DNA of 42,610 nucleotides from assembly GCA_964588165.1 (NCBI GenBank), contig CAZPMS010000005.1, forward strand, positions 69,411-112,020, in the 5' to 3' direction. The stretch is from an uncultured Gammaproteobacteria bacterium (lineage in GTDB: Bacteria > Patescibacteriota > Patescibacteriia > UBA1558 > UBA10009). The translations under genes and the position numbers were made by a program. This document shows positions 3,291 to 39,010 of this stretch, one piece after another (the stretch's first letter is position 1; the number at the start of each line of letters is the position of its first letter). Below the pieces are notes generated by a model. That model was not told the DNA's origin, did no database searches, and worked only from the letters and a program-made list of their open reading frames with translations.

Positions 3291-3345
3291 TAGAGGTAGC
3301 CCGGAGTAGGCGCCAAAGAGGTGCCAACCCCAAAATACCTTAAAT

Positions 3346-3687: not shown

Positions 3688-3707
3688 AAATTAACTTAAT
3701 TATAAAT

Positions 3708-5088: not shown

Positions 5089-6447
5089 CTAGTTTTGGTA
5101 TAACCTTTCTTTAATTGTTGTTATATCGTTTTTAATTTTTTCATCCTTTTCAATAATTAAAGAAATTTTATTACAAGCGTGGATAGCTGTGGTATGGTCT
5201 CTGCCCCCCAATTCTTGGCCGATAGAGGGGTAAGAAGAATTTATTTCTTGTCTCATTAAATACATTACAATTTGCCTAGGGATCACCATTTCTTTTCTTC
5301 TACAACTACTAATTAGGTTATCAATTGATATATCAAAATAACTACTAACAATTTGAATTATTTTTTTTGGAGTTAAGTTAACTTTAGGAATAGACGCTGT
5401 TAGGGCCTGTAAAACTTGTTTGGTAGAGTCTAGTGTTGGCTCTGTGTTATTAATTTGATGATAAGCAATAATTCTATTTAAAGCCCCCTCTAATTCCCTG
5501 ACATTATTTTGTATATTTTCTGCTAAATAATTAATAATTTCAGGAGTTAAATTATAATCTTTTTCTTGGCATTTTGCTTCTAAAATAGCGATTCTGGTTT
5601 CAAAATCGGGAGCACCCACATCAGCTGTCATACCCCATTCAAACCTAGAAATCAGCCTTTGTTCTATATCAGGAATAGCCTTAGGCGGCCTATCTGAACT
5701 TAAAACAATCTGTTTGTTATTTTGATGTAAGGCATTAAAGGTATGAAAAAACTCTTCCTGGGTTTGTTCTTTACCGGAGATAAAATGAATATCATCAATT
5801 AGTAAAACATCAACATTGCGATAGGTCTTTTTAAAATTTTCAGTCTGCCCGGTTTTAATAGCTTGGACATAATCATTGGTAAACGTTTCACTATTAATGT
5901 AAAGGATCTTTAATTTAGGATTGCCATTTAAAAGTTCATTACCAATTGCCTGGACTAAATGGGTTTTCCCTAGCCCCACACCTCCATAGATAAAGAGAGG
6001 ATTATAAACTTCTCCCAAACGTTCGGTAACAGCTTTAGAGGCGGCACTGGCCAATTCGTTACCTTTGCCTACAATAAAGTTTTCAAATATATATTTTTTA
6101 TTGAGTCCGAATTTATTGAGCTCTACAGTTTCATTAATATTACTTTTTTCTACTCTTGGAGTTACAGCATCAATAGGCTGTTTAGTTGGGACCGGTTTAG
6201 AAGTTTGTACCACGTAAGATATTTTTGTTACAGAGTCATTTGTAATACTTTTGAGAGCTTTTAAAATCTGTTCGCTGTATTTTTTTTCTAACCAAGTTTT
6301 AGTAAAAGCGTTAGGGGTGCCCACAATCACCTCTCCGTTTTCTTGAGAAGCAATAAAGGTATTTTTAAACCAAGTAGTAAAATTAGCTTTACTAATTAGT
6401 AACTCTAATTCGCCTAAAACTGCTTGCCACAATTGTTCATTATTCAT
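5089..6447 (-). CDS. dnaA: Chromosomal replication initiator DnaA
   Basis: 452-aa ORF. Walker A GGVGLGKTHL, Walker B LLIDDIHF, C-terminal DnaA signature IGQELGGRDHTTAIHACNKI. Confidence 0.95.
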   Translation of the reverse strand: MNNEQLWQAVLGELELLISKANFTTWFKNTFIASQENGEVIVGTPNAFTKTWLEKKYSEQILKALKSITNDSVTKISYVVQTSKPVPTKQPIDAVTPRVEKSNINETVELNKFGLNKKYIFENFIVGKGNELASAASKAVTERLGEVYNPLFIYGGVGLGKTHLVQAIGNELLNGNPKLKILYINSETFTNDYVQAIKTGQTENFKKTYRNVDVLLIDDIHFISGKEQTQEEFFHTFNALHQNNKQIVLSSDRPPKAIPDIEQRLISRFEWGMTADVGAPDFETRIAILEAKCQEKDYNLTPEIINYLAENIQNNVRELEGALNRIIAYHQINNTEPTLDSTKQVLQALTASIPKVNLTPKKIIQIVSSYFDISIDNLISSCRRKEMVIPRQIVMYLMRQEINSSYPSIGQELGGRDHTTAIHACNKISLIIEKDEKIKNDITTIKERLYQN

Positions 6448-6470
6448 TTTGATGTTTTATTTTAATTTTT

Positions 6471-6499
6471 GCGCCAAAGGCGCATTCGCCTTGGGCGAA
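6471..6499. repeat. Twin short GC-rich hairpins (GCGCC-AAA-GGCGC and TTCGCC-TTG-GGCGAA)
   Basis: Seen directly between the TrmB-like gene and dnaA. The core CGCCTTGGGCG recurs at 21189-21199. Confidence 0.6.
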
Positions 6500-6623
6500 G
6501 ATTTATTATTTAATCCACCCCCTTATTTTATTTTTAAAAGTTATTTAGAAAGGGTAATTAAAATAGTAGCATAAAATGCCAATAATCAAAATATCCCCAA
6601 AAGAGGATAGCTTGTTTATAAAT

Positions 6624-6642
6624 TGTGGATTTAAGTGGATAA
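6624..6642. promoter_or_regulatory. Two adjacent DnaA-box-like 9-mers upstream of dnaA
   Basis: TGTGGATTT (6624-6632, 7/9) and AGTGGATAA (6634-6642, 8/9), scored against the reverse-complement DnaA box consensus TGTGGATAA. Confidence 0.5.
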
Positions 6643-6647
6643 ATAAT

Positions 6648-7385
6648 TTAGGCAATGCCCTTATAATTTAAGGCTGATTGCCAAGCAAGTAAGAAGAAAT
6701 TTTTATAAGTTTTAGCTAAATCTTCCGATTCAATTAAAACCCCAAATAAGTTATCCAAAGAAATAATAAAAATTTTATTTTCCGTAATGGCTGAGTCAGC
6801 AAAAACTGGCAGGTTTTTGGGCATAAGCTTTATTGGCCTGCTGGTAAAATAATTTTTAGCATATTCTAAGCTGGCTTGGTCTGAAGAAACTATTTCCATG
6901 GTTTTTTTCCGGCCATCAATAATTACTTTATCCAATATATTAATAATTCCCGGAAATGCCTCATTAATTTTCCCTACGTCGCTGCCAAAAAAGTAGAGCT
7001 CTTTAGAGGGGAAGATAATTTTAGTATAAACATTCCATAACTCTTCCTTTCCCTCATAGTATTTAATTTTAGGCTTAGCGCCTTTACTAAATTTTGTTTC
7101 AAAATAAGGTAAAAAATCTTTAAAATTAGCCACTTTTTCCTTATATTTATTCAAAATTATCTTAGGATCCTCGGCAGTGTATGAGCTGGTATTCTTTTTT
7201 TCTATTTTTGTCACATATCCCTTTTTAGTTAAATTATCCAAGGAAACATAACAGGTGGGCCTTTTAATTTGGGCTTTTTTGGCGATATTTAGAACAGTAT
7301 CAGACCCCAACTCTAAACAAGCTAAATAGATTTTAGCCTCAATTTCTGTTAAACCCAGATCAACTAATATTTTTTCTTCAATCAT
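6648..7385 (-). CDS. TrmB-family winged-helix transcriptional regulator
   Basis: 245-aa ORF. N-terminus LVDLGLTEIEAKIYLACLELGSDTVLNIAKKAQIKRPTCYVSLDNLTKKGYV matches the TrmB wHTH pattern. Paralog at 17234-17974. Confidence 0.75.
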   Translation of the reverse strand: MIEEKILVDLGLTEIEAKIYLACLELGSDTVLNIAKKAQIKRPTCYVSLDNLTKKGYVTKIEKKNTSSYTAEDPKIILNKYKEKVANFKDFLPYFETKFSKGAKPKIKYYEGKEELWNVYTKIIFPSKELYFFGSDVGKINEAFPGIINILDKVIIDGRKKTMEIVSSDQASLEYAKNYFTSRPIKLMPKNLPVFADSAITENKIFIISLDNLFGVLIESEDLAKTYKNFFLLAWQSALNYKGIA

Positions 7386-7448
7386 GTAAAAAGCTTATCA
7401 AAATACAATAAGTCTGTCAATATTCCTGACAACAATCATTTAATTTTG

Positions 7449-7510
7449 GCTAATATTAGTTTAATTAGTAAGTTACTATTATTGACATAATATCTTAAAT
7501 ATGCTAATTT
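7449..7510 (+). promoter_or_regulatory. Promoter module: palindrome GCTAATATTAG, -35 TTGACA, extended -10 TGcTAATTT
   Basis: GCTAATATTAG at 7449-7459; TTGACA at 7482-7487; 17-nt spacer; TAATTT at 7505-7510 preceded by TGC. Homologous to the module at 11976-12035. Confidence 0.5.
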
Positions 7511-7566
7511 AATCTGTTTAGAACGTTGACAGTTTAGTGAGGAACAACCACAAAAGGAGAAGAGTC

Positions 7567-8382
7567 ATGAACACTAATAGTGCAAAAGACACACCAGTCA
7601 AGATGTTTGAGTGGGTTGTCATTTTAAGTGTTTTGGCGGGCGCTGTTTTTTTAACCGCTATTATACATAATTCGGGGTTTTGGGTGGCCGTGCTGCCAGC
7701 CACTTTCTTTTTTGGGGTAATTTTTAAGCTTGATACTCTAGCTAAAAAAGAAAAGAAAAACAACAACCTGCTCTTAGTAAGGAGGGCTAATTTAAGGACA
7801 TTGTGGGCCCCAACAATTCTTGTTTTATTGTGGGGGTTATTAAGCTTTCTTCGGTTTGATTTGAGCCCCCTAACTATCTACAACCACAATACTGGAGAGC
7901 TGGCAGAGGTTGGTAGGGTTGTTTGGGTTAGTCCATCTCAGTCGGTGGTTAAGTTTACTGAGCCGGACGACTCAACTGAAGAATATTATTTCAACTGCCG
8001 TGAAAACAGGGGCAACGAGTTTGTTTATCGAGAAGGCGAGGGGTATAAAATCAAAATCTTATTAAACTTTGATTATTATAACCGAGCCGAGCTTCTTAAT
8101 TACTTTTATCCTATAATCAGCGAGCGTGTGGAGGAAAGATGGTTTTGGTTTGAGTCTTTTAAGTTTACAGCGGACAGGTTGGCATGTGATTTACTAGCTG
8201 ACTATCATCGTCAAAACCTTGAGGCCCAACACTTGCTAGTTAATAAAAACCTTGGCCCGCAAAACCGCCAGCATTTAAAAATCCAACTTGAGGAAGGGTT
8301 TGAGGCGGTTTTAGTTGCCAATAAGATTGATGATATTGTTGATGTTGTTGTTGACAGTATCTATGTGGAAATTAGTTTTTAA
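7567..8382 (+). CDS. Membrane protein, function unknown (N-terminal TM helices plus ~170-aa soluble domain)
   Basis: The ORF-track start is 7537. ATG at 7567 is preferred because AAGGAG lies 7 nt upstream. TM segments WVVILSVLAGAVFLTAII, FWVAVLPATFFFGVIF, LWAPTILVLLWGLLSFL. GC-richer than the backbone. Confidence 0.6.
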   Translation: MNTNSAKDTPVKMFEWVVILSVLAGAVFLTAIIHNSGFWVAVLPATFFFGVIFKLDTLAKKEKKNNNLLLVRRANLRTLWAPTILVLLWGLLSFLRFDLSPLTIYNHNTGELAEVGRVVWVSPSQSVVKFTEPDDSTEEYYFNCRENRGNEFVYREGEGYKIKILLNFDYYNRAELLNYFYPIISERVEERWFWFESFKFTADRLACDLLADYHRQNLEAQHLLVNKNLGPQNRQHLKIQLEEGFEAVLVANKIDDIVDVVVDSIYVEISF

Positions 8383-8483
8383 CTGTATTTGTTTAGGTTG
8401 AGCTTGTGTTGTAGTTATGCAAGAGTGTTAGCGAGATTGTTAACTCAATTTTGCCAACACTATAAACTGTTAAGGAGGTTATT

Positions 8484-8801
8484 ATGCAGTGGTATATTGA
8501 TTTTATCCAGATGGTGGCCAATTGTCTGGGCACCTACCCATTTTTAGCGCCAACAGTACTTGGTTTGATTGGTTCGCCAATCATGGCCTGTTTCCCGGGA
8601 TTAAAGTGGTGGCAGCGACCAATAGCCTTTGTTTTGACGCCAATAGTGGGAACTGTTGTGTTTTATCTAGCCGAACTTGTAGTAGGCTTGGGTGTTGTAG
8701 TGTTTTTGGGTATAGGCATTTTTTCAGCAATACACACAGTATCTTGGCTTCTACCCAAAGCAATTTTTACCGGTGATTGGGGGTCACCTCAACCTGAGTA
8801 A
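8484..8801 (+). CDS. Small membrane protein (3 TM), function unknown
   Basis: 105-aa ORF with AAGGAGG 6 nt upstream of the ATG. Hydrophobic throughout. Followed by a terminator. Confidence 0.6.
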   Translation: MQWYIDFIQMVANCLGTYPFLAPTVLGLIGSPIMACFPGLKWWQRPIAFVLTPIVGTVVFYLAELVVGLGVVVFLGIGIFSAIHTVSWLLPKAIFTGDWGSPQPE

Positions 8802-8827
8802 CAAAAGCTAGATTCAACAAAACTACA

Positions 8828-8859
8828 AGCCGTTGTGTAATTCAACAACGGCTTTTTTA
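8828..8859 (+). terminator. Intrinsic terminator of the 7567-8801 cassette
   Basis: AGCCGTTG (8828-8835) pairs with CAACGGCT (8846-8853), followed by TTTTTT. Confidence 0.7.
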
Positions 8860-8888
8860 TTGACTTAATACTAAAAAATTGGTAGACT
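8860..8888 (+). promoter_or_regulatory. Putative rpmH operon promoter
   Basis: TTGACT at 8860-8865, 17-nt spacer, TAGACT at 8883-8888. Confidence 0.45.
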
Positions 8889-8990
8889 AAAGCTCAAGTT
8901 TTTTGTTATCATTAATTATATGTCGTATAACTTGTAACATATATCGTCAGTCTTAAGATATGTGTTACACGATACACAATACACGATATT

Positions 8991-9128
8991 ATGCCTAAAA
9001 GAACTTATCAACCTAAAACAAGGAAGAGAGCTAAAACCCATGGTTTTAGAAAAAGAAGCGCTAGCAAAACCGGCAAGCGTGTTTTAAAGAGCCGCAGAGA
9101 TAAAGGTAGAAAAAAATTAGCTGCTTAA
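8991..9128 (+). CDS. rpmH: 50S ribosomal protein L34
   Basis: Not in the ORF track because it is under 60 aa. Translation by eye gives [45 protein letters not shown] (45 aa), the canonical L34 sequence. Lies directly upstream of rnpA. Confidence 0.9.
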
Positions 9129-9131
9129 TAA

Positions 9132-9470
9132 ATGCTTCCCCAAATAAACAGACTGACCAAAGAGTCAGACTTTAAAATAGTAGCCAAAAAAGGGAGGCCT
9201 TTTTATTCATCCTGCTTAACTATTAAAACTTTTAAAAATAACTATGAGGCATCTCGGTTTGGCATTGTTATTTCAGCCAAAGCTAGCAAGAAAGCAGTTA
9301 CCAGAAACCAATTAAAAAGAAGGCTTTCTGAAATAATTAGAACCAATTTAGATAAACTTAATAAAGGTTTTGATGTGATGATTTTAGTAAAAAAGGAATT
9401 AACTGAAAAAAGTTTTAAAGAAATTGAGGCTGAACTACTTAATTTATTTAAAAAAGCAAAACTACTATAA
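9132..9470 (+). CDS. rnpA: Ribonuclease P protein component
   Basis: 112-aa basic ORF in the conserved rpmH-rnpA-yidD-yidC order. N-terminal LPQINRLTKESDF motif. Confidence 0.85.
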   Translation: MLPQINRLTKESDFKIVAKKGRPFYSSCLTIKTFKNNYEASRFGIVISAKASKKAVTRNQLKRRLSEIIRTNLDKLNKGFDVMILVKKELTEKSFKEIEAELLNLFKKAKLL

Positions 9471-9703
9471 TGAAAATTCTAGTTTTAAAAACCATTAGGT
9501 TATATCAAAAAACACTTTCTCCAGATTCTGGATGGTTTTCTTTTAAATACCCTAACGGTTATTGTCGGTTTCATCCTCACTGCTCAGAATATTCTCATCA
9601 AGCAATAAATAAACACGGCCTTATTAAAGGCTTTTATTTATCTTGTAAAAGAATTTTAAAGTGTAACCCTTTTAATAAAGGTGGCCACGACCCCGTTAAA
9701 TAA
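9470..9703 (+). CDS. yidD: Membrane protein insertion efficiency factor YidD
   Basis: 77 aa. Motifs CRFHPHCSEYSHQAI and RILKCNPFNKGGHDPV. Start overlaps the rnpA stop. Confidence 0.85.
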   Translation: MKILVLKTIRLYQKTLSPDSGWFSFKYPNGYCRFHPHCSEYSHQAINKHGLIKGFYLSCKRILKCNPFNKGGHDPVK

Positions 9704-9738
9704 TCAATCATTAATCTTTAACCATCAATTATTATTCT

Positions 9739-10479
9739 ATGTTTATAGAAATTTACAACACAATTTTGTACGAACCGTTATTTAATTTATTGGTTTTTTT
9801 CTACAATATTGTCCCAGGTAATGATATTGGCTTAGCTATTATCCTGTTAACTATTTTTATAAAGTTAATCCTATCCCCTTTCTTCATCCAATCCATAAAA
9901 GCCCAGAGAGCAATGCAGACTTTGCAGCCTAAATTGGATGAGCTAAAAGAAAAATTTAAAGATGAAAAAGATAAGTTAGGCCCGGCTATAATGGAACTTT
10001 ATAAAAAAGAAAAAGTTAGTCCTTTTTCTTCATGCTTGCCCCTTTTAATCCAACTCCCCTTTTTAATTGCAGTTTATCAAGTGTTTAGGACCGGCTTAGC
10101 TAACGGCAGTTTGGATAAGGTATATTCTTTTATTACCAACCCCGGAGCTATTGATCCCATTTCATTTGGTATTGTAGATTTGGGCCAGGCCAGTATATTT
10201 ATGGCTGTTTTGGCTGGCGGCGCCCAATTTTTACAGTCAAAAATCATGTTAGGCAAAACTAAAAAAATGCAAACCAATACCAAGGCTAAATCCCCTATGG
10301 CTTCTGCTATGGGTAAGCAAATGATGTATTTTATGCCAGTAATTACCGTTTTTATTGGAGCATCATTGCCAGCCGGCTTAACCTTTTATTGGTTTTTAGT
10401 AACTTTATTCGGCGCTTTGCAGCAGTTAATAATTTTTAAGAAAATGGATAAAGCTGAAGCTATACCCGAAAAAACCTAA
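9739..10479 (+). CDS. yidC: YidC/Oxa1-family membrane insertase (short form)
   Basis: 246 aa, multi-TM. Motifs LQPKLDELKEKFKDEKDKL and ELYKKEKVSPFSSCLPLLIQLPFLIAVY. Conserved synteny. Confidence 0.85.
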   Translation: MFIEIYNTILYEPLFNLLVFFYNIVPGNDIGLAIILLTIFIKLILSPFFIQSIKAQRAMQTLQPKLDELKEKFKDEKDKLGPAIMELYKKEKVSPFSSCLPLLIQLPFLIAVYQVFRTGLANGSLDKVYSFITNPGAIDPISFGIVDLGQASIFMAVLAGGAQFLQSKIMLGKTKKMQTNTKAKSPMASAMGKQMMYFMPVITVFIGASLPAGLTFYWFLVTLFGALQQLIIFKKMDKAEAIPEKT

Positions 10480-10490
10480 GTTTATGTTTT

Positions 10491-10760
10491 ATGATTTGTG
10501 GTTTTGATAAAATAAAAAATCTCCCAACCTATACCAAAAGCGGCGATTTTTTAGGCAAAATTGATGGGATAGAAATAAATTGCCAAACTCAGGTAGTAGC
10601 TCGTTATATAATAAAAAGTTCTAAAATAATAAATAGATTAACTTCTCATAAATTGATTGTAAGTGCTAGCCAAGTAATAAGTCTGGATAACAAGAAGATG
10701 GTTGTAGAAGACAGCACCATAGGTAATACCAGACTAGCCCGTCAAGGCGTAGCTTCATAA
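10491..10760 (+). CDS. Small PRC-barrel-like protein (tentative)
   Basis: 89-aa ORF. Pattern LPTYTKSGDFLGKIDGIEIN ... KLIVSASQVISLDNKKMVV resembles a PRC-barrel fold. Based on pattern only. Confidence 0.4.
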   Translation: MICGFDKIKNLPTYTKSGDFLGKIDGIEINCQTQVVARYIIKSSKIINRLTSHKLIVSASQVISLDNKKMVVEDSTIGNTRLARQGVAS

Positions 10761-10770
10761 AAATAATATA

Positions 10771-10806
10771 AAAAACAGCCTACTAAATAAGCGGGCTGTT
10801 TTAGTT
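10771..10806. terminator. Bidirectional terminator between convergent genes
   Basis: ACAGCC (10775-10780) pairs with GGCTGT (10794-10799). A-run before and T-run after. Confidence 0.6.
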
Positions 10807-10819
10807 TATTTAAAATTGT

Positions 10820-11830
10820 TTATTGGTTAGAGAAAAATTCCCAAATAACAGGAGTTTCCCATTGGTACCACCTATGCTCGCCTTGGTTTAAAGTATAAAG
10901 AACCGTATCAGCCTGGCACTGGGTAAATTCTTCACGAACGGCATCATGTTCTATAATATTTTCACTTACTATACCACCTTGGCAGTGATTACTTTCTGAC
11001 CATTTAGCAAAAGCTTCTGGGATAGAGGCTACGCCCGGTTTACCATTATATAAAACTGTTCCATCAAGTAAGCCATTAAACATGATTATAGGTACTGGTT
11101 GGGGAGTTACATCTGTATTTTCACCCATGGTTCCGCCAACTGTAGCAATGCCCGCGAAAGTCCCAGGCAAAGTATAAGCTAAATATTGAGTGAATATGGC
11201 ACCATTTGATGAACCAGTAGCGAAAATTTTAGTTTCATCGATGGCCAGATTTGAAATAAGCTCATCAATTAAAGCTACAATAAAACCTTTATCATCAACT
11301 GGAGCATTATTTGTAAACCACCAGCCGGTTTCATTGGGAGCATTGGTATTGCCGCCAAGTAAGGATTGAGGATAGACTACAATAAAACCCTCTTGGTTAG
11401 ATAGCAGGGAAAACTTAGTGGTACCCTCAAAAGCATAAGAAGTTCCGGTAGTTCCATGGAAAGCCATAACTAAAGGCATTGGTGTTTGGCCGTTATAATT
11501 TGGCGGTAAATGAACACGGTAGGTTCTTATTCCTCCATCATACTCTAAACTATAATTATATGAGCCGATTTGGTAATTATTTTGAGGATCATTAACAGGC
11601 TCTTCAATAGGTTCTTCTGGCGGAGTGTCAGGATCACTAGGTGTTATCTGGGGAACAGTTTTTGGCGCAGTTTTTGATGTTGGCGGGGTAGTGCCAGCTG
11701 GGTACTGCTCATAATTATTATTTTGCCTAAAGTTGGCAATTCGGTTTCGCCTTTTTTGCTGTAGAGCCACTGCCAAAACCACAATGATTAAGACTAAAAT
11801 TATTAGGATAAATATTTGTTTCTTTCTCAT
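10820..11830 (-). CDS. Secreted or membrane-anchored alpha/beta-hydrolase esterase, PHB-depolymerase/LpqC-like family
   Basis: The ORF-track start is 11911. The internal ATG at 11830 (MRKKQIFILIILVLIIVVLAVAL) gives a signal anchor right at the N-terminus. Pro/Thr-rich linker. YRVHLPPNYNGQTPMPLVMAFHGTTGT and nucleophile-elbow-like GSSNG. Confidence 0.65.
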   Translation of the reverse strand: MRKKQIFILIILVLIIVVLAVALQQKRRNRIANFRQNNNYEQYPAGTTPPTSKTAPKTVPQITPSDPDTPPEEPIEEPVNDPQNNYQIGSYNYSLEYDGGIRTYRVHLPPNYNGQTPMPLVMAFHGTTGTSYAFEGTTKFSLLSNQEGFIVVYPQSLLGGNTNAPNETGWWFTNNAPVDDKGFIVALIDELISNLAIDETKIFATGSSNGAIFTQYLAYTLPGTFAGIATVGGTMGENTDVTPQPVPIIMFNGLLDGTVLYNGKPGVASIPEAFAKWSESNHCQGGIVSENIIEHDAVREEFTQCQADTVLYTLNQGEHRWYQWETPVIWEFFSNQ

Positions 11831-11975
11831 ATTGATTTGATTTAATTTTTTTCTCTTGCGGAACCAGATACGCTGTGTTAGGCGCCATTCCATTTCCCCC
11901 TGTTTTCTCATAATTCATCTAAAAACGAAAAATTCTGATTTTACAAGGTATTTTAAATAATTTTTGTTATTTTTG

Positions 11976-12035
11976 GCTAATATTAGGAAAATTTATTAAT
12001 TTATAGTTGACATAATTATTTAGATATGCTATAAT
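11976..12035 (+). promoter_or_regulatory. Promoter module: palindrome GCTAATATTAG, -35 TTGACA, extended -10 TGcTATAAT
   Basis: GCTAATATTAG at 11976-11986; TTGACA at 12007-12012; 17-nt spacer; TATAAT at 12030-12035. TTTTGGCTAATATTAG is identical over 16 nt to 7444-7459. Confidence 0.55.
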
Positions 12036-12089
12036 TTATTATCTTGTGAAGTTTTAAAACATAACAGATGAAGATTGGAGGAAACATCG

Positions 12090-12383
12090 ATGAAATGCAA
12101 AGTTTTCTTTGCTTTTGGTGAACCAGGAGTCGCAAATTCACTTACCCGTTCAGGGGAAAGAACATCTTTCTATGTTCCCGCAGATCGTGAAGAGTATGAA
12201 AGGAGTAGGGCGAGTGAAGTTCCAACTGCAGCAGATGAAATACTTGAAGTTGAGGTTAACACCTGGCTTCGAGAGAACCCCGAAGTTGTAATAATAAGTC
12301 AATCATTGACGGTTATGCCACATACTGATGGCGTCTACAGAACACTGTATCTGTCAGTTTTGTACGAACAACCCGAGGAATAG
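12090..12383 (+). CDS. Small acidic cytoplasmic protein, function unknown
   Basis: The ORF-track start is 12075. ATG at 12090 is preferred because GGAGG lies 8 nt upstream. GC-richer sequence. The C-terminal part (EVEVNTWLRENPEVVIISQSL...LYLSVLY) has an alpha/beta small-domain look. Confidence 0.55.
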   Translation: MKCKVFFAFGEPGVANSLTRSGERTSFYVPADREEYERSRASEVPTAADEILEVEVNTWLRENPEVVIISQSLTVMPHTDGVYRTLYLSVLYEQPEE

Positions 12384-12403
12384 CCTCAAGAAAACTCGCA
12401 ACT

Positions 12404-12440
12404 GAGACCCAGCGAGTATAAATAAAGGGTCTCTTTTTTT
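12404..12440 (+). terminator. Intrinsic terminator of the 12090 gene
   Basis: GAGACCC (12404-12410) pairs with GGGTCTC (12427-12433), followed by TTTTTTT. Confidence 0.75.
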
Positions 12441-12441
12441 A

Positions 12442-12484
12442 TAAAAAATAGAATGTGGGGCACACCATAAAACTGGTATGCCCC
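12442..12484 (-). terminator. Intrinsic terminator of the 12704-12504 gene
   Basis: GGGGCA (12457-12462) pairs with TGCCCC (12479-12484). The A-run at 12442-12449 is a T-run on the minus strand. Confidence 0.6.
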
Positions 12485-12503
12485 GGAGAGAATAATGTAA
12501 TTC

Positions 12504-12704
12504 TCAAGTAGATTTTGTAGGAGAAGGTAAAGGACGATTGCCCCACATTTCCACACAAATGAACAATAAGCCGAGAGGCCCCAGCACATAGAGGATGGGC
12601 ACAGTAATACTGTGGTGCCATCTTAATTTCCCCCATTTTCTTTTGATATAGATTAGGGATATTATGGCTGCCAGTAGGCCACTTACTAACCAGAGCGCTT
12701 CCAT
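12504..12704 (-). CDS. Small membrane protein (2 TM), function unknown
   Basis: 66-aa ORF. AGGAGGG lies 5 nt upstream of the ATG (minus-strand reading AAAAGGAGGGTGCAATG). Chosen over the overlapping frames 12386-12589 and 12439-12636, which lack an SD. Confidence 0.55.
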   Translation of the reverse strand: MEALWLVSGLLAAIISLIYIKRKWGKLRWHHSITVPILYVLGPLGLLFICVEMWGNRPLPSPTKST

Positions 12705-12775
12705 TGCACCCTCCTTTTTGTTGTCTGGAAGTATATATTCATCTGCTAATATTTTAGCTATTATTAATAAAAAAG

Positions 12776-12810
12776 TAAATAAAAATCCACCCCGTTTACC
12801 TTCGGGTGGA
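12776..12810 (-). terminator. Intrinsic terminator of the lipid-kinase-like gene
   Basis: TCCACCC (12786-12792) pairs with GGGTGGA (12804-12810). T-run on the minus strand. Confidence 0.6.
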
Positions 12811-12835
12811 AATCATAAATACTATTTTGTTTTTT

Positions 12836-13597
12836 TTAAAATAATCTTTTACTGCCAACAATTATTTTTAGTTTTTTAGGGGCAATAGAAACTTTAACCG
12901 GTGTTTTAAAAACTGCCTGCTGGTCTATAGTAACGGTTACCGGTTCAGATTTGCTGCCAATCATAATTTTTTTAAAAGGGAAAATACTTTGCTTATCTGC
13001 TTTGGGTTTGGAAAATAATTTTTCTTTAACTGGTGCAATCACAGCTTCCAGCAAACCATCAGTCGGAATAGATATCCTTTGTTTATAAACTGATTGGTTA
13101 GTGCTTAAAAAGCCCAGATTGCAGATGCTGATAATTGATTTTTTAGAAACCGGGCTTATTTTAAATTTATCAAAATCCAAGATTGCCTCGGAGTCAGAAA
13201 TAGTGGCAGAATCAATAAAGTACTGATGGTTTATTTTACCCAAGTCAATTTTTTTAACCAAGCGTTGGGCCAAAACATCGCAAGCCTTTTCCCCTTCGGG
13301 CACGCCCAATATTTCCGCTACCTTACTTTTATTATTAATTGGAATTATTCCTAGTGTAACATCCATCTCCGCTATAATGTTTACGATTTTGGAAAAAGTT
13401 TCATCATCACCAACAGCCACCACGGTTTTAACTCCCTGTTTAATACCATCCTCTATAACCTCCTGCATATTTTTTAAAACATTTAGCCTGCAGATCTTTC
13501 CTTTAATCTCTAAGTCAGCCAATCTGTTTTCAATCCGGTTTAGGACATTAGTATATTTTTTATTATTCAAAAAAATATCGTAAATATACAAATACAT
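12836..13597 (-). CDS. Diacylglycerol-kinase-catalytic-domain (YegS/BmrU-like) lipid kinase family protein
   Basis: 253 aa. VKTVVAVGDDETFSKIVNIIAEMDVTLGIIPIN corresponds to the GGDGT-type nucleotide-binding segment of DAGK_cat proteins. Confidence 0.65.
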   Translation of the reverse strand: MYLYIYDIFLNNKKYTNVLNRIENRLADLEIKGKICRLNVLKNMQEVIEDGIKQGVKTVVAVGDDETFSKIVNIIAEMDVTLGIIPINNKSKVAEILGVPEGEKACDVLAQRLVKKIDLGKINHQYFIDSATISDSEAILDFDKFKISPVSKKSIISICNLGFLSTNQSVYKQRISIPTDGLLEAVIAPVKEKLFSKPKADKQSIFPFKKIMIGSKSEPVTVTIDQQAVFKTPVKVSIAPKKLKIIVGSKRLF

Positions 13598-13603
13598 ATA
13601 ACT

Positions 13604-14017
13604 CTATTTTAATTTTGCGTCTGGGATTTCTTCTGCTTCCTTTAACTTTTCAGGGATAACCATCTTTTTGCTGTTCATACTAATTTTGCCATTTACCCTA
13701 GCGCCTTTTTCAATAGAAATTAAATTTGTAGAAATGTCACCTTTTACTTTGGCAGTAGAAGTTAGTTCAATCTCATTCTCGGCTACAATATTGCCTGTAA
13801 CTTCACCGGCAACAAAAGCGCTTTGGGCAAATACTTTAGCCTGAACTTTGGCATCCTTGCCCACTTTTAAATGGTTTTTGGTGTTTAAATTACCAATAAC
13901 GACTCCTTCAACAATTACATCACCATCACCATTAAAATCTCCTTCTACTTTTACTGAAGGGCCAATGATTGTTTCTACATTTTTTGAAGGTTTAGTTGGG
14001 TTCTCTCCTTTGAACAT
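13604..14017 (-). CDS. Bactofilin-family cytoskeletal protein
   Basis: 137 aa. Repetitive beta-helix pattern IIGPSVKVEGDFNGDGDVIVEGVVIGNL...VAGEVTGNIVAENEIELTSTAKVKGDI...GARVNGKISM. Confidence 0.8.
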   Translation of the reverse strand: MFKGENPTKPSKNVETIIGPSVKVEGDFNGDGDVIVEGVVIGNLNTKNHLKVGKDAKVQAKVFAQSAFVAGEVTGNIVAENEIELTSTAKVKGDISTNLISIEKGARVNGKISMNSKKMVIPEKLKEAEEIPDAKLK

Positions 14018-14131
14018 AAGTATTTTGTTTTTAATAATTAATTAGCAGTAGTTAAATTTTAGTGAAAAGATGGATTAATGTCAAAGCCATAGATATTTTA
14101 TTTTTTTGTGTTATTATATAAGGAACAAATT

Positions 14132-14266
14132 ATGCAAAACTATTTTAAAAAAGACTTAATAAAAATTATAATTTTAGCTGCAATGGTTTTGGCTGTTTTA
14201 ATTGGTTTGACTATTTGGGATAACCAATCAGGCACACTTGAGAGCCTTTCTGGCAGGTATTTTTAG
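14132..14266 (+). CDS. Possible 44-aa single-TM micro-protein
   Basis: ATG..TAG read by eye: MQNYFKKDLIKIIILAAMVLAVLIGLTIWDNQSGTLESLSGRYF. No SD, which is normal for the backbone. Below the ORF-track cutoff. Confidence 0.3.
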   Translation: MQNYFKKDLIKIIILAAMVLAVLIGLTIWDNQSGTLESLSGRYF

Positions 14267-14375
14267 TTGATTTTTAGGATTTTTACTCAAAAAAAACATT
14301 TTAACATTTTACGACGCTATATTTTGTTTTATGTTAGGCAAAAATGGGCAAATTAGTCCAATTTTCAATAACTAA

Positions 14376-14391
14376 TGTTCCACGTGGAACA
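14376..14391. other. parS-like ParB-binding palindrome TGTTCCACGTGGAACA
   Basis: Perfect 16-bp palindrome made of two TGTTCCAC half-sites. 15/16 to the Bacillus-type parS TGTTCCACGTGAAACA. Intergenic, about 8 kb from dnaA. Confidence 0.7.
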
Positions 14392-14563
14392 TCGAGTTAT
14401 CACTCGTTTCGGCTTACACAATCGAACAAGTTCAATTGGTTCAGCCTTCACGCGCGTCCCCCTCTCCACTCCTCATTTTATTCGGAATGGTTTAAAATAA
14501 GGGCATTGATAAGCAATAATATCTGACAAATTATTGAGTTTCCATTCAAACGAGCGTAATTTA

Positions 14564-14638
14564 GCCCCGATAGTTCAATGGATAGAACGTTGGCCTCCTA
14601 AGCCGAAGATTCAGGTTCGATTCCTGATCGGGGTACCA
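14564..14638 (+). tRNA. tRNA-Arg (anticodon CCT), CCA encoded
   Basis: Manual cloverleaf. Acceptor GCCCCGA/TCGGGGT, D arm GTTC..GAAC, anticodon stem TTGGC/GCCGA with loop CTCCTAA, T arm TCAGG-TTCGATT-CCTGA. 75 nt. Confidence 0.85.
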
Positions 14639-14644
14639 AAATAA

Positions 14645-14692
14645 GCTAATATTAGTCCAAATATTGACAATCGCATTGAAATAGTGTATATT
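14645..14692 (+). promoter_or_regulatory. tRNA-Ala promoter with upstream GCTAATATTAG palindrome
   Basis: GCTAATATTAG at 14645-14655; TTGACA at 14664-14669; 17-nt spacer; TATATT at 14687-14692. The tRNA starts 12 nt later. Confidence 0.5.
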
Positions 14693-14704
14693 AAGCCCAC
14701 TTTA

Positions 14705-14781
14705 GGGCCTCTAGCTCAGCTGGTTAGAGCGCTTGCATGGCATGCAAGAGGTCAAGGGTTCGAATCCCTTGAGGTCCACCA
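14705..14781 (+). tRNA. tRNA-Ala (anticodon GGC), CCA encoded
   Basis: Manual cloverleaf. Acceptor GGGCCTC/GAGGTCC with the G3:U70 Ala identity pair. Anticodon stem CTTGC/GCAAG with loop ATGGCAT. T arm AAGGG-TTCGAAT-CCCTT. 77 nt. Confidence 0.9.
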
Positions 14782-14804
14782 TTAAAGTATAAGAAAAGCG
14801 ATTT

Positions 14805-15101
14805 ATGTATTTTGTTTATATACTTCAAAGCTTGAAAGATTCAGGCTATTATATCGGAGTTACATCAAATATTGAAAGAAGATTTCGTGAACATAATTTA
14901 GGCTTGGCTAAATCAACAAAATCCAGAAGACCTTTCAAAATGGCAAGAATCGAGCAATATTTTTATATAAAAGACGCTTATAGACGGGAAAAGTTTTTAA
15001 AATCAAAGAAAAGCAGTAAAATTATAAGTAAGATTGTTGCCAGTCCCGACGTCCCGACCAAAGGTCGGAAATCGGGATCCCGACATAGCTCTTTGAGCTA
15101 G
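14805..15101 (+). CDS. GIY-YIG nuclease family protein (UPF0213/YhbQ-like)
   Basis: 98 aa. MYFVYILQSLKDSGYYIGVTSNIERRFREHN carries the GIY-(10)-YIG and R..EH motifs. The last ~20 codons run through a GC-rich multi-hairpin. Paralog at 41110-41388. Confidence 0.8.
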   Translation: MYFVYILQSLKDSGYYIGVTSNIERRFREHNLGLAKSTKSRRPFKMARIEQYFYIKDAYRREKFLKSKKSSKIISKIVASPDVPTKGRKSGSRHSSLS

Positions 15102-15109
15102 CGTCGGGA

Positions 15110-15154
15110 CATGGCATGCAAGAGGTCAAGGGTTCGAATCCCTTGAGGTCACCA
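15110..15154 (+). pseudogene. Duplicated 3' part of tRNA-Ala(GGC), from anticodon loop to CCA
   Basis: CATGGCATGCAAGAGGTCAAGGGTTCGAATCCCTTGAGGTC-ACCA matches 14736-14781 except for one missing C in the acceptor strand. There is no matching 5' half, so it cannot fold as a tRNA. Confidence 0.85.
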
Positions 15155-15172
15155 CTAATTAAAACAAAATTT

Positions 15173-16087
15173 ATGGAAAAACTTATTATTATAGGCTCTG
15201 GTCCGGCTGGTTTAACAGCAGCAATTTATTCAGCTAGAGCTAATTTGAACCCCCTGGTTATTGAGGGCAATGTACCAGGCGGCCAACTTTTATGGACTAC
15301 AGAGGTAGAAAATTTTCCTGGCTTTGAAAAAGGCATAATGGGGCCAGAATTGATGCAGAATATGAAAAAACAGGCCGAAAGATTTGGAGCGAAATTTGCC
15401 GCAGATATGGTAAAAAGTACTGATTTTAGCCAAAAACCATATAAAATCATAGTTGGTGACGAAACTTATGAGTCAGAAGCAGTTATTGTGGCTACTGGAG
15501 CCAGAGCTAGAATGCTTGGGATTAGCAATGAAGATGAATTATTAGGCAAAGGAGTCCATACTTGCGCAACCTGTGACGGAGCTTTTTATAGGGGAAAGGA
15601 AGTTATTATAGTTGGCGGTGGTGATAGTGCCATGGAAGAGGCCAATTTTTTAACTAAATTCGCTAAAAAAGTATATGTTGTTCATAGAAAGGAAACTCTT
15701 AACGCTTCTGAAATAATGCAGAAAAAGGCTAAAAGTAACCAAAAAATTGAATTTATTTGGAATTCAGTGATAAAAGAGTATATTGGTAAAGATAAATTAG
15801 AGGCTGTTAAATTGGCTAATAGTAAGTCAAATAAAGAAAAAGAAATGAAGATTGACGGTGTTTTCTTGGCAATTGGCCATATTCCCAATACAGAGATATT
15901 TAAAGATCAGCTTGATTTAGGCAAATTTGGCTATATTGAGCCAAAAAATAATGTCTTTACAGAAATAGAAGGTATTTTTGTGGCCGGAGATGTTTCTGAC
16001 TGGAAATACCGCCAGGCAGTTACGGCAGCCGGTTTTGGTTGTATGGCTTCATTGGAGGCAGAGAAATACTTAGATTCATTGGAATAA
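15173..16087 (+). CDS. trxB: Thioredoxin-disulfide reductase
   Basis: The ORF-track start 15116 lies inside the tRNA remnant. ATG at 15173 gives MEKLIIIGSGPAGLTAAIYSAR (FAD GxGxxG). Redox-active CATCDG. NADPH site VIIVGGGDSAMEEA. Confidence 0.9.
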   Translation: MEKLIIIGSGPAGLTAAIYSARANLNPLVIEGNVPGGQLLWTTEVENFPGFEKGIMGPELMQNMKKQAERFGAKFAADMVKSTDFSQKPYKIIVGDETYESEAVIVATGARARMLGISNEDELLGKGVHTCATCDGAFYRGKEVIIVGGGDSAMEEANFLTKFAKKVYVVHRKETLNASEIMQKKAKSNQKIEFIWNSVIKEYIGKDKLEAVKLANSKSNKEKEMKIDGVFLAIGHIPNTEIFKDQLDLGKFGYIEPKNNVFTEIEGIFVAGDVSDWKYRQAVTAAGFGCMASLEAEKYLDSLE

Positions 16088-16147
16088 AAACCTTGCCCGA
16101 TTCGTAACGACGTGCAATTGCACGTCGCAACTAAGCAAGGTTTTTTT
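16086..16147 (+). terminator. Compound hairpin terminator after trxB
   Basis: AAAAACCTTGC (16086-16096) pairs with GCAAGGTTTTT (16135-16145). Inner palindrome CGACGTGCAATTGCACGTCG at 16109-16128. T-run follows. Confidence 0.7.
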
Positions 16148-16162
16148 GTTCCACGTAGAACA
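16147..16162. other. parS-like site TGTTCCACGTAGAACA
   Basis: 15/16 to the perfect palindrome at 14376-14391. Intergenic, abutting the trxB terminator. Confidence 0.6.
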
Positions 16163-16290
16163 TCTTTTAAAAAACTCTCATCCGACAGATGTTCGAATGA
16201 GGCTTTTGATTCGGAGTGAACACAGCCAAAGTTATACTTTCTTTTTAAAGCTTTTAAGAAATAACTTACTATTAATTTCATTCAGCGGAC

Positions 16291-16325
16291 GAAAAAGCCC
16301 CTCGTCAGTAGAGTCGACGAGGAGC
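16291..16325 (-). terminator. Intrinsic terminator of the 17097-16340 two-gene unit
   Basis: CCTCGTC (16300-16306) pairs with GACGAGG (16316-16322). The A-run at 16292-16296 is a T-run on the minus strand. Confidence 0.6.
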
Positions 16326-16339
16326 CATGAACGTAAAAA

Positions 16340-16642
16340 TCACACTCGCTTGATTTGTGCACATGCTCGACGTATGGTGGTTCTTGCAGAACATTTTTTT
16401 ACCAAGCAATTAATCCAGCACAGTGACCGTTCCTGCGTTGGCTCCTGAGCGCATTTTATTGCAAGGGCACCTGTTCTATTTATAATACTACGGGCGGTAT
16501 CCCAGTAACTACTATTTGCTTCATCAAATGTTTCAGCCTTGGGCATTGGACAGTCCGCAGGATGATCATCGATGGGATAGAATGTCACAACCCGCAAAAC
16601 GAAGCCCCAGTATCTTTTCCCTCTCGTTTTCCTTGATTCCAT
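16340..16642 (-). CDS. Hypothetical 100-aa protein, Cys-rich C-terminus, function unknown
   Basis: AAGGAGG lies 8 nt upstream of the ATG (minus-strand reading CAAGGAGGCATATCGCATG). GC-richer sequence. A terminator follows directly. Confidence 0.5.
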   Translation of the reverse strand: MESRKTRGKRYWGFVLRVVTFYPIDDHPADCPMPKAETFDEANSSYWDTARSIINRTGALAIKCAQEPTQERSLCWINCLVKKCSARTTIRRACAQIKRV

Positions 16643-16722
16643 GCGATATGCCTCCTTGTTTGTATTTTACCAAGTTTTACTTTGAGTAGGCTAAGAGTCG
16701 TGTGTGAGTGTTTGCTCTTGAA

Positions 16723-17097
16723 TTATCGCTTTGCCAAAAGTGAGTCCTTGGGGATTATTAATTTAAATAATATTTCCGGCTCACCTTTCCTAACTAATGA
16801 CAGCATGTTGTTATAAGAAATAAAATTCAGTTGCTCTTCTACCTCCTTTCGCTCAGTTTCATTTAAGTTCATCTTTTCGAGTATCTCCAAAGCAACAATG
16901 AACTTGCTCAAAGCTTGAATGAATTTAATTTCTGATGGTATACCATGAGACAGATCGTTATCAGAATCAAGAGAGCTCTTATGGAAAAGAGTGGGGGATG
17001 TAATTTTCAAATAACTATATATTTCGGCAACGCTCTCTTCAATCACTTCCAAAACTGCTTTGTGTGCAAGTATCTGGCCATCCAATTTTAATGCCAT
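16723..17097 (-). CDS. Hypothetical 124-aa helical protein, function unknown
   Basis: AAGGAG lies 7 nt upstream of the ATG (TAAAGGAGATGCGTCATG). First gene of the minus-strand pair. Confidence 0.55.
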   Translation of the reverse strand: MALKLDGQILAHKAVLEVIEESVAEIYSYLKITSPTLFHKSSLDSDNDLSHGIPSEIKFIQALSKFIVALEILEKMNLNETERKEVEEQLNFISYNNMLSLVRKGEPEILFKLIIPKDSLLAKR

Positions 17098-17138
17098 GAC
17101 GCATCTCCTTTATGTTGCTTTTGTACTATAAACATGTA

Positions 17139-17210
17139 ATAATATTTAAAATATGCTACAATGTCAATATAAATGGAACAGTCAACTTGAAAATATTATC
17201 TAATATTAGC
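17139..17210. promoter_or_regulatory. Back-to-back promoters plus GCTAATATTAG palindrome between the orphan pair and the TrmB-like gene
   Basis: Minus strand: TTGACA (rc of 17162-17167), 17-nt spacer, TATTAT (rc of 17139-17144). Plus strand: extended -10 TGcTACAAT (TACAAT at 17157-17162). Palindrome CTAATATTAG at 17200-17209 (GCTAATATTAG on the minus strand, 17200-17210). Confidence 0.4.
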
Positions 17211-17233
17211 AAAAAAAATAAAAAAAAATAACT

Positions 17234-17974
17234 ATGTTGAAAAATATTGACAACAAAATTGAAACATTAAAAAAGCTGGGCATGGCAGAAAACGAGGCAG
17301 AAATTTACCTTGTTTTACTAAAAACAGGAGGTGCAACTGCCACTATTTTGGCAAAATCATTGGATTTACAGCGAACTTCTGTTTATCACACCTTAACAAA
17401 GATGACTCGGCAGAAATTTATACAAGTTTATTATGAAAAGAATAAAAAGTTTTTTAAGCCAATTAAGCCATATAATCTGGCAAATCTGTTCAAACGAAAT
17501 CTAGAAAGCTTTAATAATTTAATCCCAAACTTAGATATCGCACAAAAAAGGGCCAATCAACAGGCCGGGCTTAGATTTATTCAAACTATAGAAGAATTAA
17601 AGGAATTTTATTTGCAGATTTTAGAGGATTATAAAGGCCAGAGCTATAAAATTATTGGTGATGCTGCTTCATGGGAAAATCTGGATTCCAACTTTTTTAT
17701 TGATTTTAGGAAAAAAAGAGGCAAGGCTAATATAAAAACCAAACTGCTTTTAACCAATGAATCAAAATCAATTAATCCAAAAGACAAGTCATTGCAAAGA
17801 ATAGTCAAGTTTTTGCCGGAAAAATATAGCTTTAAAAGCACTATAGATATTTACGACGATAAAATTTTAATTGTTGGATCAGATATTTCGGCTGTTGGCG
17901 TGGTTATTGAAGTCCCAGCCATGGTTGACGTTTTTAAAGAGACATTCAATATTCTATGGGAGGTTTTTTCTTAA
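17234..17974 (+). CDS. TrmB-family winged-helix transcriptional regulator (second copy)
   Basis: 246 aa. LKKLGMAENEAEIYLVLLKTGGATATILAKSLDLQRTSVYHTLTKMTRQKFI matches the TrmB wHTH pattern. Same length and architecture as 6648-7385. Confidence 0.7.
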   Translation: MLKNIDNKIETLKKLGMAENEAEIYLVLLKTGGATATILAKSLDLQRTSVYHTLTKMTRQKFIQVYYEKNKKFFKPIKPYNLANLFKRNLESFNNLIPNLDIAQKRANQQAGLRFIQTIEELKEFYLQILEDYKGQSYKIIGDAASWENLDSNFFIDFRKKRGKANIKTKLLLTNESKSINPKDKSLQRIVKFLPEKYSFKSTIDIYDDKILIVGSDISAVGVVIEVPAMVDVFKETFNILWEVFS

Positions 17975-21174: not shown

Positions 21175-21190
21175 AGTTCCATGTGGAACG
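21175..21190. other. Degenerate parS-like site AGTTCCATGTGGAACG
   Basis: 13/16 to TGTTCCACGTGGAACA, core GTTCCAtGTGGAAC. Lies in the AT-rich spacer between two GC-rich cassettes. Confidence 0.4.
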
Positions 21191-38949: not shown

Positions 38950-39010
38950 TATCGCAGATAGTTCACGGATCAATCGCAGATATTTTAATCATCAATCATT
39001 AATTATATTT

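Follow-up and report, generated by a model that had tools for sequence, protein, structure and literature searches.

A clade-restricted intergenic palindrome beside promoters and TrmB-like genes in the replication-origin region of a Patescibacteria genome

A stretch of 42,610 bases from an uncultured member of the Patescibacteria (contig CAZPMS010000005.1, positions 69,411 to 112,020; hereafter the window) carries a recurrent palindrome of 10-12 bases, GCTAATATTAGC, that is found before promoters and is called P throughout this text. P is a real sequence element: it is intergenic, restricted to one clade, positionally conserved, adjacent to promoters and distinct from the inverted repeats that accompany genes of the TrmB family, two of which (TrmB-like 1 and TrmB-like 2) are found in the window. 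From this pattern, we infer that P binds a protein that modulates transcription initiation, and that this protein is neither TrmB-like 1 nor TrmB-like 2. The reading that we favor is that P is probably the binding site of another, dimeric regulator of one Patescibacteria clade, which would act at sigma-70-type promoters. As such, P is a known kind of thing, a transcription-factor site without its factor.

P is intergenic and restricted to one clade

The exact 10-mer CTAATATTAG has four matches in the window, at 7450-7459, 11977-11986, 14646-14655, and 17200-17209. In 100 dinucleotide-preserving shuffles of the window its mean count was 0.09, and none of the 100 gave four matches. With its flanking G it forms the 11-mer GCTAATATTAG, which reads on the plus strand in copies 1-3 and on the minus strand in copy 4. 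All four copies are intergenic, while intergenic DNA makes up 15% of the window under a crude gene model (open reading frames, ORFs, 85%). For the intergenic DNA of the 42.6 kb alone, a first-order Markov model expects 0.02 matches where four are observed, and the comparison of ORF and intergenic counts found no copy in the coding DNA of the window. The claim of four intergenic copies, which a sequence-only reading of this DNA had made against a chance estimate of about 0.15, is thus confirmed.

Copy 1 (TTTTGGCTAATATTAG, 7445-7460, plus strand) is flanked by the divergent promoters of TrmB-like 1 and of gene 7567-8382 and stands 65-74 nt upstream of TrmB-like 1, and copy 2 (11972-11987, plus strand) is identical to it in sequence. 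Copy 3 (14645-14655, plus strand) is located between tRNA-Arg and tRNA-Ala, and copy 4 (17200-17210, minus strand) between 16723-17097 on the minus strand and 17234-17974 on the plus strand, downstream of TGCTACAAT and 24 nt upstream of TrmB-like 2. A spacing variant, GCTAATATTTTAGC (GCTAA-TATT-TTAGC, 12745-12758), overlaps a weak minus-strand promoter that precedes the small membrane gene 12504-12704. Its position had been given correctly by the sequence-only reading, but compared with the 12-mer palindrome it has two inserted bases, where that reading had counted one. The four copies fall within 9.8 kb, beginning 1 kb from dnaA, and the 55.8 kb of contig that was covered holds no others, given that none was found in the 9.9 kb to the left and the 3.3 kb to the right of the window. 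By our own estimate, this clustering within the contig has only modest significance (p ~0.02).

Loci of relatives are designated by L-numbers, where L001-L057 are genome loci fetched through TrmB-like 1 and metagenome stretches were found by the exact 16-mer. In the 14 loci with close orthologues of TrmB-like 1 (61-76% identity, 233 kb), CTAATATTAG occurs eight times in intergenic DNA against 0.14 expected, an enrichment of approximately 57-fold. In the 43 loci of more distant Patescibacteria (623 kb) it has no intergenic occurrence, again against 0.14 expected, and a single coding copy against 0.33 expected. The intergenic enrichment proposed as a check by the sequence-only reading is therefore present, within the close relatives. 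Six more copies in these close relatives are placed inside called ORFs, four of which are doubtful ORFs drawn over non-coding arrays or over the yidD-yidC spacer. When any central dinucleotide is allowed (CTAA-NN-TTAG), the close relatives hold 18 intergenic occurrences versus 1.8 expected. P recurs in many unrelated contexts among genomes with proteins that are 45-75% identical.

The anatomy of P is that of a dimer site in appearance: the arms CTAA/TTAG are conserved, the next position outward is G/C, and the center is variable, the dinucleotides seen being TA, AA/TT, CA, TC, and GG. Averaging of the arms of 19 unbiased copies leads to the half-site TTTT-R-G-CTAAT, and some copies form a full palindrome of 22 bp, TTTTGGCTAATATTAGCCAAAA.

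Promoters beside P

Each copy of P in the window is found near a predicted promoter. Copy 1 is followed after 22 nt by promoter 1 (TTGACA-N17-TAATTT with an upstream TG, 7482-7510, plus strand), which would drive gene 7567-8382, led by a Shine-Dalgarno (SD) sequence. This promoter was read from the sequence, as a weak -10 kept it under the threshold of the scan. Promoter 2 (TTGACA-N17-TATAAT with TG, 12007-12035, plus strand) matches the consensus at 12/12 positions and has the top score among the sigma-70-like matches in 7-18.2 kb; it is located 20 nt downstream of copy 2 and is predicted to drive 12090-12383. Promoter 3 (TTGACA-N17-TATATT, 11/12, 14664-14692, plus strand) follows copy 3 after 8 nt, and 12 nt separate its end from tRNA-Ala (14705-14781). 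Promoter 4 (TTGACA-N17-TATTAT, 11/12, 17139-17167, minus strand) is 32 nt downstream of copy 4 and would drive 17097-16723 and probably 16642-16340. The five best sigma-70-like matches in 7-18.2 kb are those at 12007 (12/12) and at 17167 on the minus strand, 14084 on the minus strand, 14664, and 18083 (each 11/12). Copies of P adjoin three of these five, with gaps of 8, 20, and 32 nt, and those at 14084 and 18083 are without a copy. A likely promoter of TrmB-like 2 is also read from the sequence, with the extended -10 TGCTACAAT (17154-17162, plus strand) and a weak -35. Given the start inferred from it, copy 4 would lie at ~+31 to +40 of the TrmB-like 2 transcript.

The orientation is the same for all four copies, with G-CTAATATTAG followed by the -35, and with the G and the T-rich flank facing away from the promoter. 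With transcription taken to start 7 nt beyond the -10, the centers of P are at approximately -62.5, -60.5, -48.5, and -72.5, and at -69.5 with respect to the TrmB-like 1 promoter. The arrangement motif-N18-22-TTGACA is also found in L010, L012, L078, L079, and L068. A fixed spacing of the class I/II type is hinted at in the window but does not hold up robustly over all loci.

Copies 1 and 2 belong to modules that resemble each other over ~85 nt, where the identical TTTTGGCTAATATTAG is followed by TTGACATAAT and by TATGCTA(T)AAT, while the likeness of copies 3 and 4 to them is limited to the 11-mer. The promoter of 12090-12383 looks as if it arose by duplication of the ancestral promoter that diverges from TrmB-like 1. 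The placements that the sequence-only reading had described are all found again: the homologous modules of copies 1 and 2, copy 1 in the divergent region of TrmB-like 1, copy 3 before the tRNA-Ala promoter, and copy 4 between an orphan gene pair and a TrmB-like gene. A fixed spacing to the -35, which that reading had put forward for checking, is not observed.

Three segments of the window, 7567-8801, 10820-12704, and 16340-17974 (the last including TrmB-like 2), are missing from the syntenic relatives L010 and L001. Given that the genes behind copies 1, 2, and 4 are missing in these closest syntenic relatives, they are considered to belong to accessory islands. Apart from one esterase, no Pfam, NCBIfam, or PHROGs family was found for the products of these islands. 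Most genes of the accessory segments are orphans that have strong SD sequences and promoters near the consensus. Such cassettes had been proposed as the targets of P; in relatives the targets are mostly housekeeping and origin-proximal genes, and not cassettes alone. The genes that adjoin intergenic P among the metagenome matches listed include infA, adk, nusG, trx, a UPF0102 gene, a tRNA gene, and, twice, a gene for a sigma-region-4/HARE-HTH protein. In these last two cases, which are unrelated metagenome contigs (L068 ~2538-3751 and L119 1166-2336), P is found just upstream of homologous proteins of ~370 aa that combine, by eye, a sigma-70 region-4-like helix-turn-helix (HTH) with a HARE-HTH-like C-terminal part. 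This protein is a candidate for a recurrent target of P, or for an autoregulated P-binding protein.

TrmB-like genes and their own inverted repeats

TrmB-like 1 (6648-7385, minus strand, 245 aa) and TrmB-like 2 (17234-17974, plus strand, 246 aa) are 25% identical to each other. In line with the TrmB-like label of the sequence-only reading, both have the TrmB-type N-terminal winged helix-turn-helix (wHTH; PF01978, E 1.5e-14 for TrmB-like 1 and 1.7e-13 for TrmB-like 2). An alignment profile matches TrmB (3qph), and it is only the wHTH domain that resembles it. The sugar-binding C-terminal effector domain of TrmB and TrmBL1 was not found in these proteins of 245-246 aa, and their scores for the NCBIfam TrmB and TrmBL1 equivalogs are 28-33 bits, versus cut-offs of 600-650. 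The AlphaFold (AF2) model of TrmB-like 1 (mean pLDDT 84.8) has TrmBL2 as its best full-length match (5bpd, E 1.7e-13), followed by TrmB, and its C-terminal half is similar to PLD-like folds, so that its architecture is TrmBL2-like. TrmBL2 is an archaeal chromatin protein and repressor without the sugar-binding domain, and the operators described for the family are TACT-N3-AGTA, TATCAC-N5-GTGATA (TGM), and TACT-N7-8-GAGTA (PMC4158304). Orthologues of TrmB-like 1 that are 60-80% identical are found in Patescibacteria, with homologues labelled Patescibacteria, Komeilibacteria, or Parcubacteria. A full-text search for TrmB-like regulators of the Patescibacteria (Candidate Phyla Radiation) found no literature, and nothing related was found on binding motifs in Patescibacteria in titles and the opening parts of abstracts.

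The promoter of TrmB-like 1 contains an inverted repeat of its own. This repeat, O1 (TGTCAATATTCCTGACA, TGTCA-N7-TGACA, 7415-7431), includes the -35 (TTGACA, minus strand) and is the sole perfect TGTCA-N7-TGACA of the window. The sequence of the O1 region, ATGTTGTCAGAAATATTGACA, is essentially invariant in 13 aligned upstream regions, these being the window and 12 relatives. The repeat has ~44 occurrences and stands upstream of the TrmB-like family in ~40 of the 57 genome loci, where fewer than ~2 would be expected by chance by our own estimate. Nearly all occurrences have the start of a TrmB-like gene 20-160 nt away, down to a protein identity of 27-30%. The recognition-helix residues of the TrmB-like 1 family (K41, R42, P43, T44, and Y46) are also invariant. 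Given that O1 is invariant in close orthologues and tied to the gene family across the phylum, it is likely the operator of TrmB-like 1, and its position in the promoter of the gene makes it a probable autoregulatory operator. In all orthologues, only ~8 nt separate the end of the -10 of this promoter from the ATG, and no Shine-Dalgarno sequence is found in 7386-7431 or in the orthologues; the TrmB-like 1 mRNA is probably leaderless.

On the other side of P lies O2 (7471-7487), a degenerate repeat of the TGTCA-N7-(T)GACA type that contains the -35 (7482-7487) of the plus-strand promoter for 7567-8382. Better-kept versions of O2 (e.g., TGTCAATAATTCTGACA) are found at the equivalent place in L003, L004, L012, and L013. 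A distance of exactly 17 nt separates P from O1 in the window, L001 (center TC), L002 (center CA), L010, L012, and L013 (one mismatch), and P is shifted, altered, or absent at the TrmB-like 1 promoters of L003-L009, L011, and L014. Counting variants, P is present at ~6-7 of the 14 orthologous TrmB-like 1 promoters and TGTCA-N7-TGACA at all of them, so the co-occurrence of motif and regulator, which the sequence-only reading had listed as a check, fails in about half of the promoters that keep TrmB-like 1. The flank of P on the O2 side is not conserved among these promoters. From center to center, P and O1 are 31.5 bp apart (three helical turns) and O2 and P 23.5-24.5 bp. The fixed composite O2-P-O1 indicates that the putative binding protein of P probably works with TrmB-like 1 at this locus.

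TrmB-like 2 has more distant relatives, its nearest homologues being at most 53% identical (~50%). Its candidate family-type operator, TGTTGAAAAATATTGACA (TGTTGA-N6-TTGACA, 17235-17252), overlaps the start codon. An inverted repeat just upstream of the ATG is conserved in the four loci of TrmB-like 2 homologues, L178-L181 (GTGTCTACAAAATTAGACAC, TGTGTCTAACTTTTTAGACA, TGTTGATAAATTTTGACA, and TTGTTGTAAATTTTTGACA); L179 carries TGTTGATAAATTTTGACA, L181 carries TTGTTGTAAATTTTTGACA, and L178 and L180 have TGTCTA..TAGACA. The search for CTAA-NN-TTAG in these four loci, which amount to 43 kb and include one dnaN-dnaA-rpmH region, found none. The presence of TGTTGAAAAATATTGACA at the window gene suggests that TrmB-like 2 keeps the family operator and that P (17200-17209) stands there in addition to it. 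The metagenome locus L074 contains a third TrmB-like gene. The protein it encodes is 22-27% identical to both proteins of the window, and the promoter of the gene has TGTCA-N9-TGACA over the -35 and P over the -10/+1. Among the metagenome matches listed, L074 is the only one with a TrmB-like gene beside P, that of L103 being 4 kb off.

Taken together, TGTC/GACA arms seem to be common to the TrmB-like paralogues and the spacers to be specific to each family, with P accompanying the genes as a distinct site. The spacer between TGTC and GACA is 9 for TrmB-like 1, 10 for the TrmB-like 2 family, 11 for L074, and 12 for the arrays in L012 and L013 (L178 ~5970-5990; L179 ~1690-1710; L180 ~5975-5992; L181 ~2908-2927; L074 ~2730-2750; L012 9050-9075 and 9218-9240). 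The length of the spacer may be a code that separates the TrmB-like paralogues. The upstream regions of both TrmB-like genes are among the four of ~38 intergenic regions of the window that carry P (hypergeometric p ~0.009, own estimate), and with the orthologues and L074 added to these two out of two, the adjacency of P to TrmB-like genes is more than chance.

Origin setting, rival readings, and known systems

The window is a replication-origin region, with dnaN (3708-4814, minus strand), dnaA (5089-6447, minus strand), rpmH (~8992-9126), rnpA, yidD, and yidC, and the cumulative GC skew has its minimum at ~4-8 kb. The spacer upstream of dnaA (6448-6647) contains the DnaA-box-like sequences TGTGGATTT and AGTGGATAA (6622-6642), A/T-rich runs, and a GC hairpin, and is a candidate oriC. 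No perfect DnaA box (TTATNCACA) was found in the window. Sites similar to parS, with zero, one, and three mismatches to TGTTCCACGTGGAACA, are located at 14376-14391, 16147-16162, and 21175-21190, all intergenic, and no ParB gene was found in the window. We take TGTTCCACGTGAAACA to be the parS consensus of Bacillus subtilis. The same sequence occurs in PMC8299390.

In relatives, P is found upstream of dnaA (L083, with a variant in L012), upstream of rpmH/rnpA (L133, with a variant in L005), in the yidD-yidC spacer (L005 and L009), and between bactofilin and trx or tRNA genes (L090, L133, L154, and L161, the last amid four perfect DnaA boxes). Perfect DnaA boxes are ~9-fold enriched within 150 nt of P, in at least eight metagenome loci, and none overlaps P; among these loci, one is immediately upstream of dnaA and another within a four-box cluster. 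In the loci where TrmB-like 1 is away from origin genes (L003, L004, L006-L008, and L011), no copy of P was found. This distribution suggests that P is concentrated near the origin. In the arrays of L002, L012, and L013, six copies of P are located 11-14 nt from parS-like TGTTCCATATGGAACA sites. These arrays (L002 500-1500, L012 8660-9400, and L013 2440-3150) are non-coding, extend over 0.7-1 kb beside tRNA genes, and hold 5-6 parS-like TGTTCCATATGGAACA sites interleaved with GTCTAG..CTAGAC palindromes, together with the DnaA-box-like TGTGAATAA and with TTTTGGTGGAAAA. Tandem units of ~78 bp in them contain P together with a hairpin and a T run. The arrays may be a centromere or an oriC region.

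Two further features of the window were observed. A second recurrent intergenic 13-mer, ATCAATCATTAAT(C), occurs at 9703-9716, 23511-23524, 23557-23570, and 38991-39004; one copy is in the spacer of yidD and yidC, a hairpin is flanked by two copies in inverted orientation, and one stands 20 nt before the ATG at 39011. Two small genes with a GIY-YIG domain (14805-15101 and 41104-41388) each adjoin tRNA genes, tRNA-Arg/Ala for the former and tRNA-Gly/Leu for the latter.

The sequence-only reading had proposed that one or both TrmB-like proteins bind P and control a small regulon of cassettes, together with their own genes. What stands of this proposal is that P is a selected cis-element near TrmB-like genes, upstream of both in the window, over the -10/+1 of the third in L074, and at a fixed spacing in orthologues of TrmB-like 1. 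It is also in line with the palindromes that characterized TrmB-family regulators bind, often with autoregulation, and with the two different site types reported for TrmB of P. furiosus (PMC4158304); moreover, the N4 variant at 12745, GCTAA-N4-TTAGC, is similar to TCTAA-N4-TTAGA, the core of the operators of L178 and L180. Binding of P by the TrmB-like proteins is nonetheless rather unlikely, since each family has its own, better-conserved TGTC...GACA repeat at its promoter, to which the half-site GCTAA is unrelated. Furthermore, the recognition helix is invariant and yet P is lost or changed in L003, L006, L008, L011, and L014, which keep both the regulator and O1. TrmB-like 2 is accessory and has no orthologue above 53% identity, although the relatives share P, and the 43 kb around its homologues are free of P even where an origin region is included. 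Alternatively, P could be mainly an architectural site of the origin or centromere, used by a replication, segregation, or nucleoid factor in the way that ParB uses parS or DnaA uses datA-like sites, with promoter adjacency being secondary. The four copies near dnaA, against none in the other 46 kb of contig covered, point in this direction, as do the copies in the dnaA-rpmH-yidC-bactofilin-trx cluster of relatives, the neighboring parS-like sites and DnaA boxes, and the lack of P where TrmB-like 1 is away from origin genes. However, the sampling is biased to origin regions, and the contig clustering is of modest significance. P is also found by infA, adk, nusG, and orphan genes, and in the window it is not beside the DnaA-box-like sequences at 6622-6642. 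The fixed distance between P and parS-like sites is explicable by duplication of whole modules. Overall, this explanation is an unlikely but serious alternative.

Two further explanations were weighed. P could be a passenger, without function of its own, in duplicated promoter modules or short dispersed repeats, as may be argued from the ~85 nt shared by the modules of copies 1 and 2 and, in relatives, from the ~78-bp tandem units and larger repeated modules with P. That copies 3 and 4 share nothing but the 11-mer with copies 1 and 2, that P is kept at TrmB-like 1 promoters while its O2-side flank is not, and that it recurs in unrelated contexts but is absent from the coding DNA of the window make this very improbable. 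An RNA hairpin, terminator, or processing signal would agree with the palindromic nature of P and with the T run that follows it in L009, L083, and L095. In the window, however, the T run is 5' of P, and the copies are upstream of predicted promoters. In addition, the predicted folds, of -0.7 to -3.2 kcal/mol, are not better than those of shuffles (z -1.2 to +0.45), so that such a signal is hardly credible. The Rfam families found in the window are tRNAs only.

Several known elements were also considered for P and rejected. It has no similarity to the DnaA box TTATNCACA, and its sequence is unrelated to that of parS (TGTTCCACGTGAAACA), for which separate candidate sites are present. By eye, a sigma-54 promoter (TGGCAC-N5-TTGC) was rejected because the GG-GC spacing is one base short, and a -10 element (TGACA-N17-GCTAAT or N19-TAATAT) because there is no A at -11 in the former and the spacer is of 19 nt in the latter.

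The binding of P by a dimeric regulator other than the two TrmB-like proteins has to be weighed against several observations. The gaps between P and the -35 scatter from 2 to ~43 nt over all loci and, given that the gap is not fixed, no single geometry of activation or repression follows and promoter adjacency alone is claimed. Many copies in relatives are without a recognizable promoter, among them those in the arrays of L002, L012, and L013 and both copies of L022, which are within an ORF. Promoters 2-4 are already near consensus, and for this reason would hardly need an activator. The gene-context statistics are biased, because every locus of the relatives was fetched through the origin-proximal TrmB-like 1. 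Finally, most of the at least 120 metagenome matches to the exact 16-mer are chance matches in unrelated DNA, such as the coding sequence of a histidine-kinase H-box (FLANISHE); clade membership of the metagenome matches was judged by homology and context only, and the other matches were left unused.

With these points considered, regulation by a separate dimeric factor is still the reading that we prefer. P would be a cis-regulatory element with the extended half-site TTTT-R-GCTAAT and two free central bases, centered mostly ~48-72 bp upstream of the inferred start and sometimes overlapping the core promoter or located in the 5' leader. Here it would precede four promoters within 10 kb of dnaA, serving two for orphan accessory genes, that of tRNA-Ala, and the divergent control regions that belong to the two TrmB-like genes. 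It would be separate from the putative TrmB-like operators (TGTCA-N7-TGACA and TGTTGA-N6-TTGACA) and would co-regulate the TrmB-like genes through another factor. A bolder version, which is possible but doubtful, is that P is the site of a novel global regulator or nucleoid protein linking the origin with its DnaA-box regions and the dnaA promoter, the parS arrays, tRNA and housekeeping promoters, and TrmBL2-like regulators that use a TGTC-Nx-GACA 'spacer code'. If true, a network controlling both transcription and replication would for the first time be outlined in these uncultivated bacteria with reduced genomes. Two cis-elements are gained from this analysis, the clade-specific P and the phylum-wide TGTCA-N7-TGACA, the latter being the probable operator of a conserved TrmBL2-like protein, and both are entry points to regulons in Patescibacteria genomes.

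Among known systems, P is similar to the operators of the TrmB family (PMC4158304) in being a short inverted repeat near promoters, beside TrmB-family wHTH genes that are probably autoregulated. It differs from them in its half-site GCTAA with a 2-bp spacer, given that the conserved repeats of Patescibacteria TrmB-like genes are TGTC-N9-12-GACA, and in that it does not track the regulators across genomes. CRP acts from class I and class II positions, and Fis sites are found at stable-RNA promoters, at oriC, and at its own gene. P resembles the sites of these proteins in its centers ~48-72 bp upstream of strong promoters, including that of a tRNA, in its association with the origin and with regulator genes, and in its A/T-rich core and A/T tracts. 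Unlike these, its sequence is dissimilar and its helical phasing is not demonstrable, with gaps of 2-43 nt. With the parS/ParB system it has in common the palindromic nature, the similar size, the clustering at the origin, and, in relatives, the interleaving with parS-like sites, whereas its sequence is unrelated and the genome has parS-like sites of its own at 14376, 16147, and 21175.

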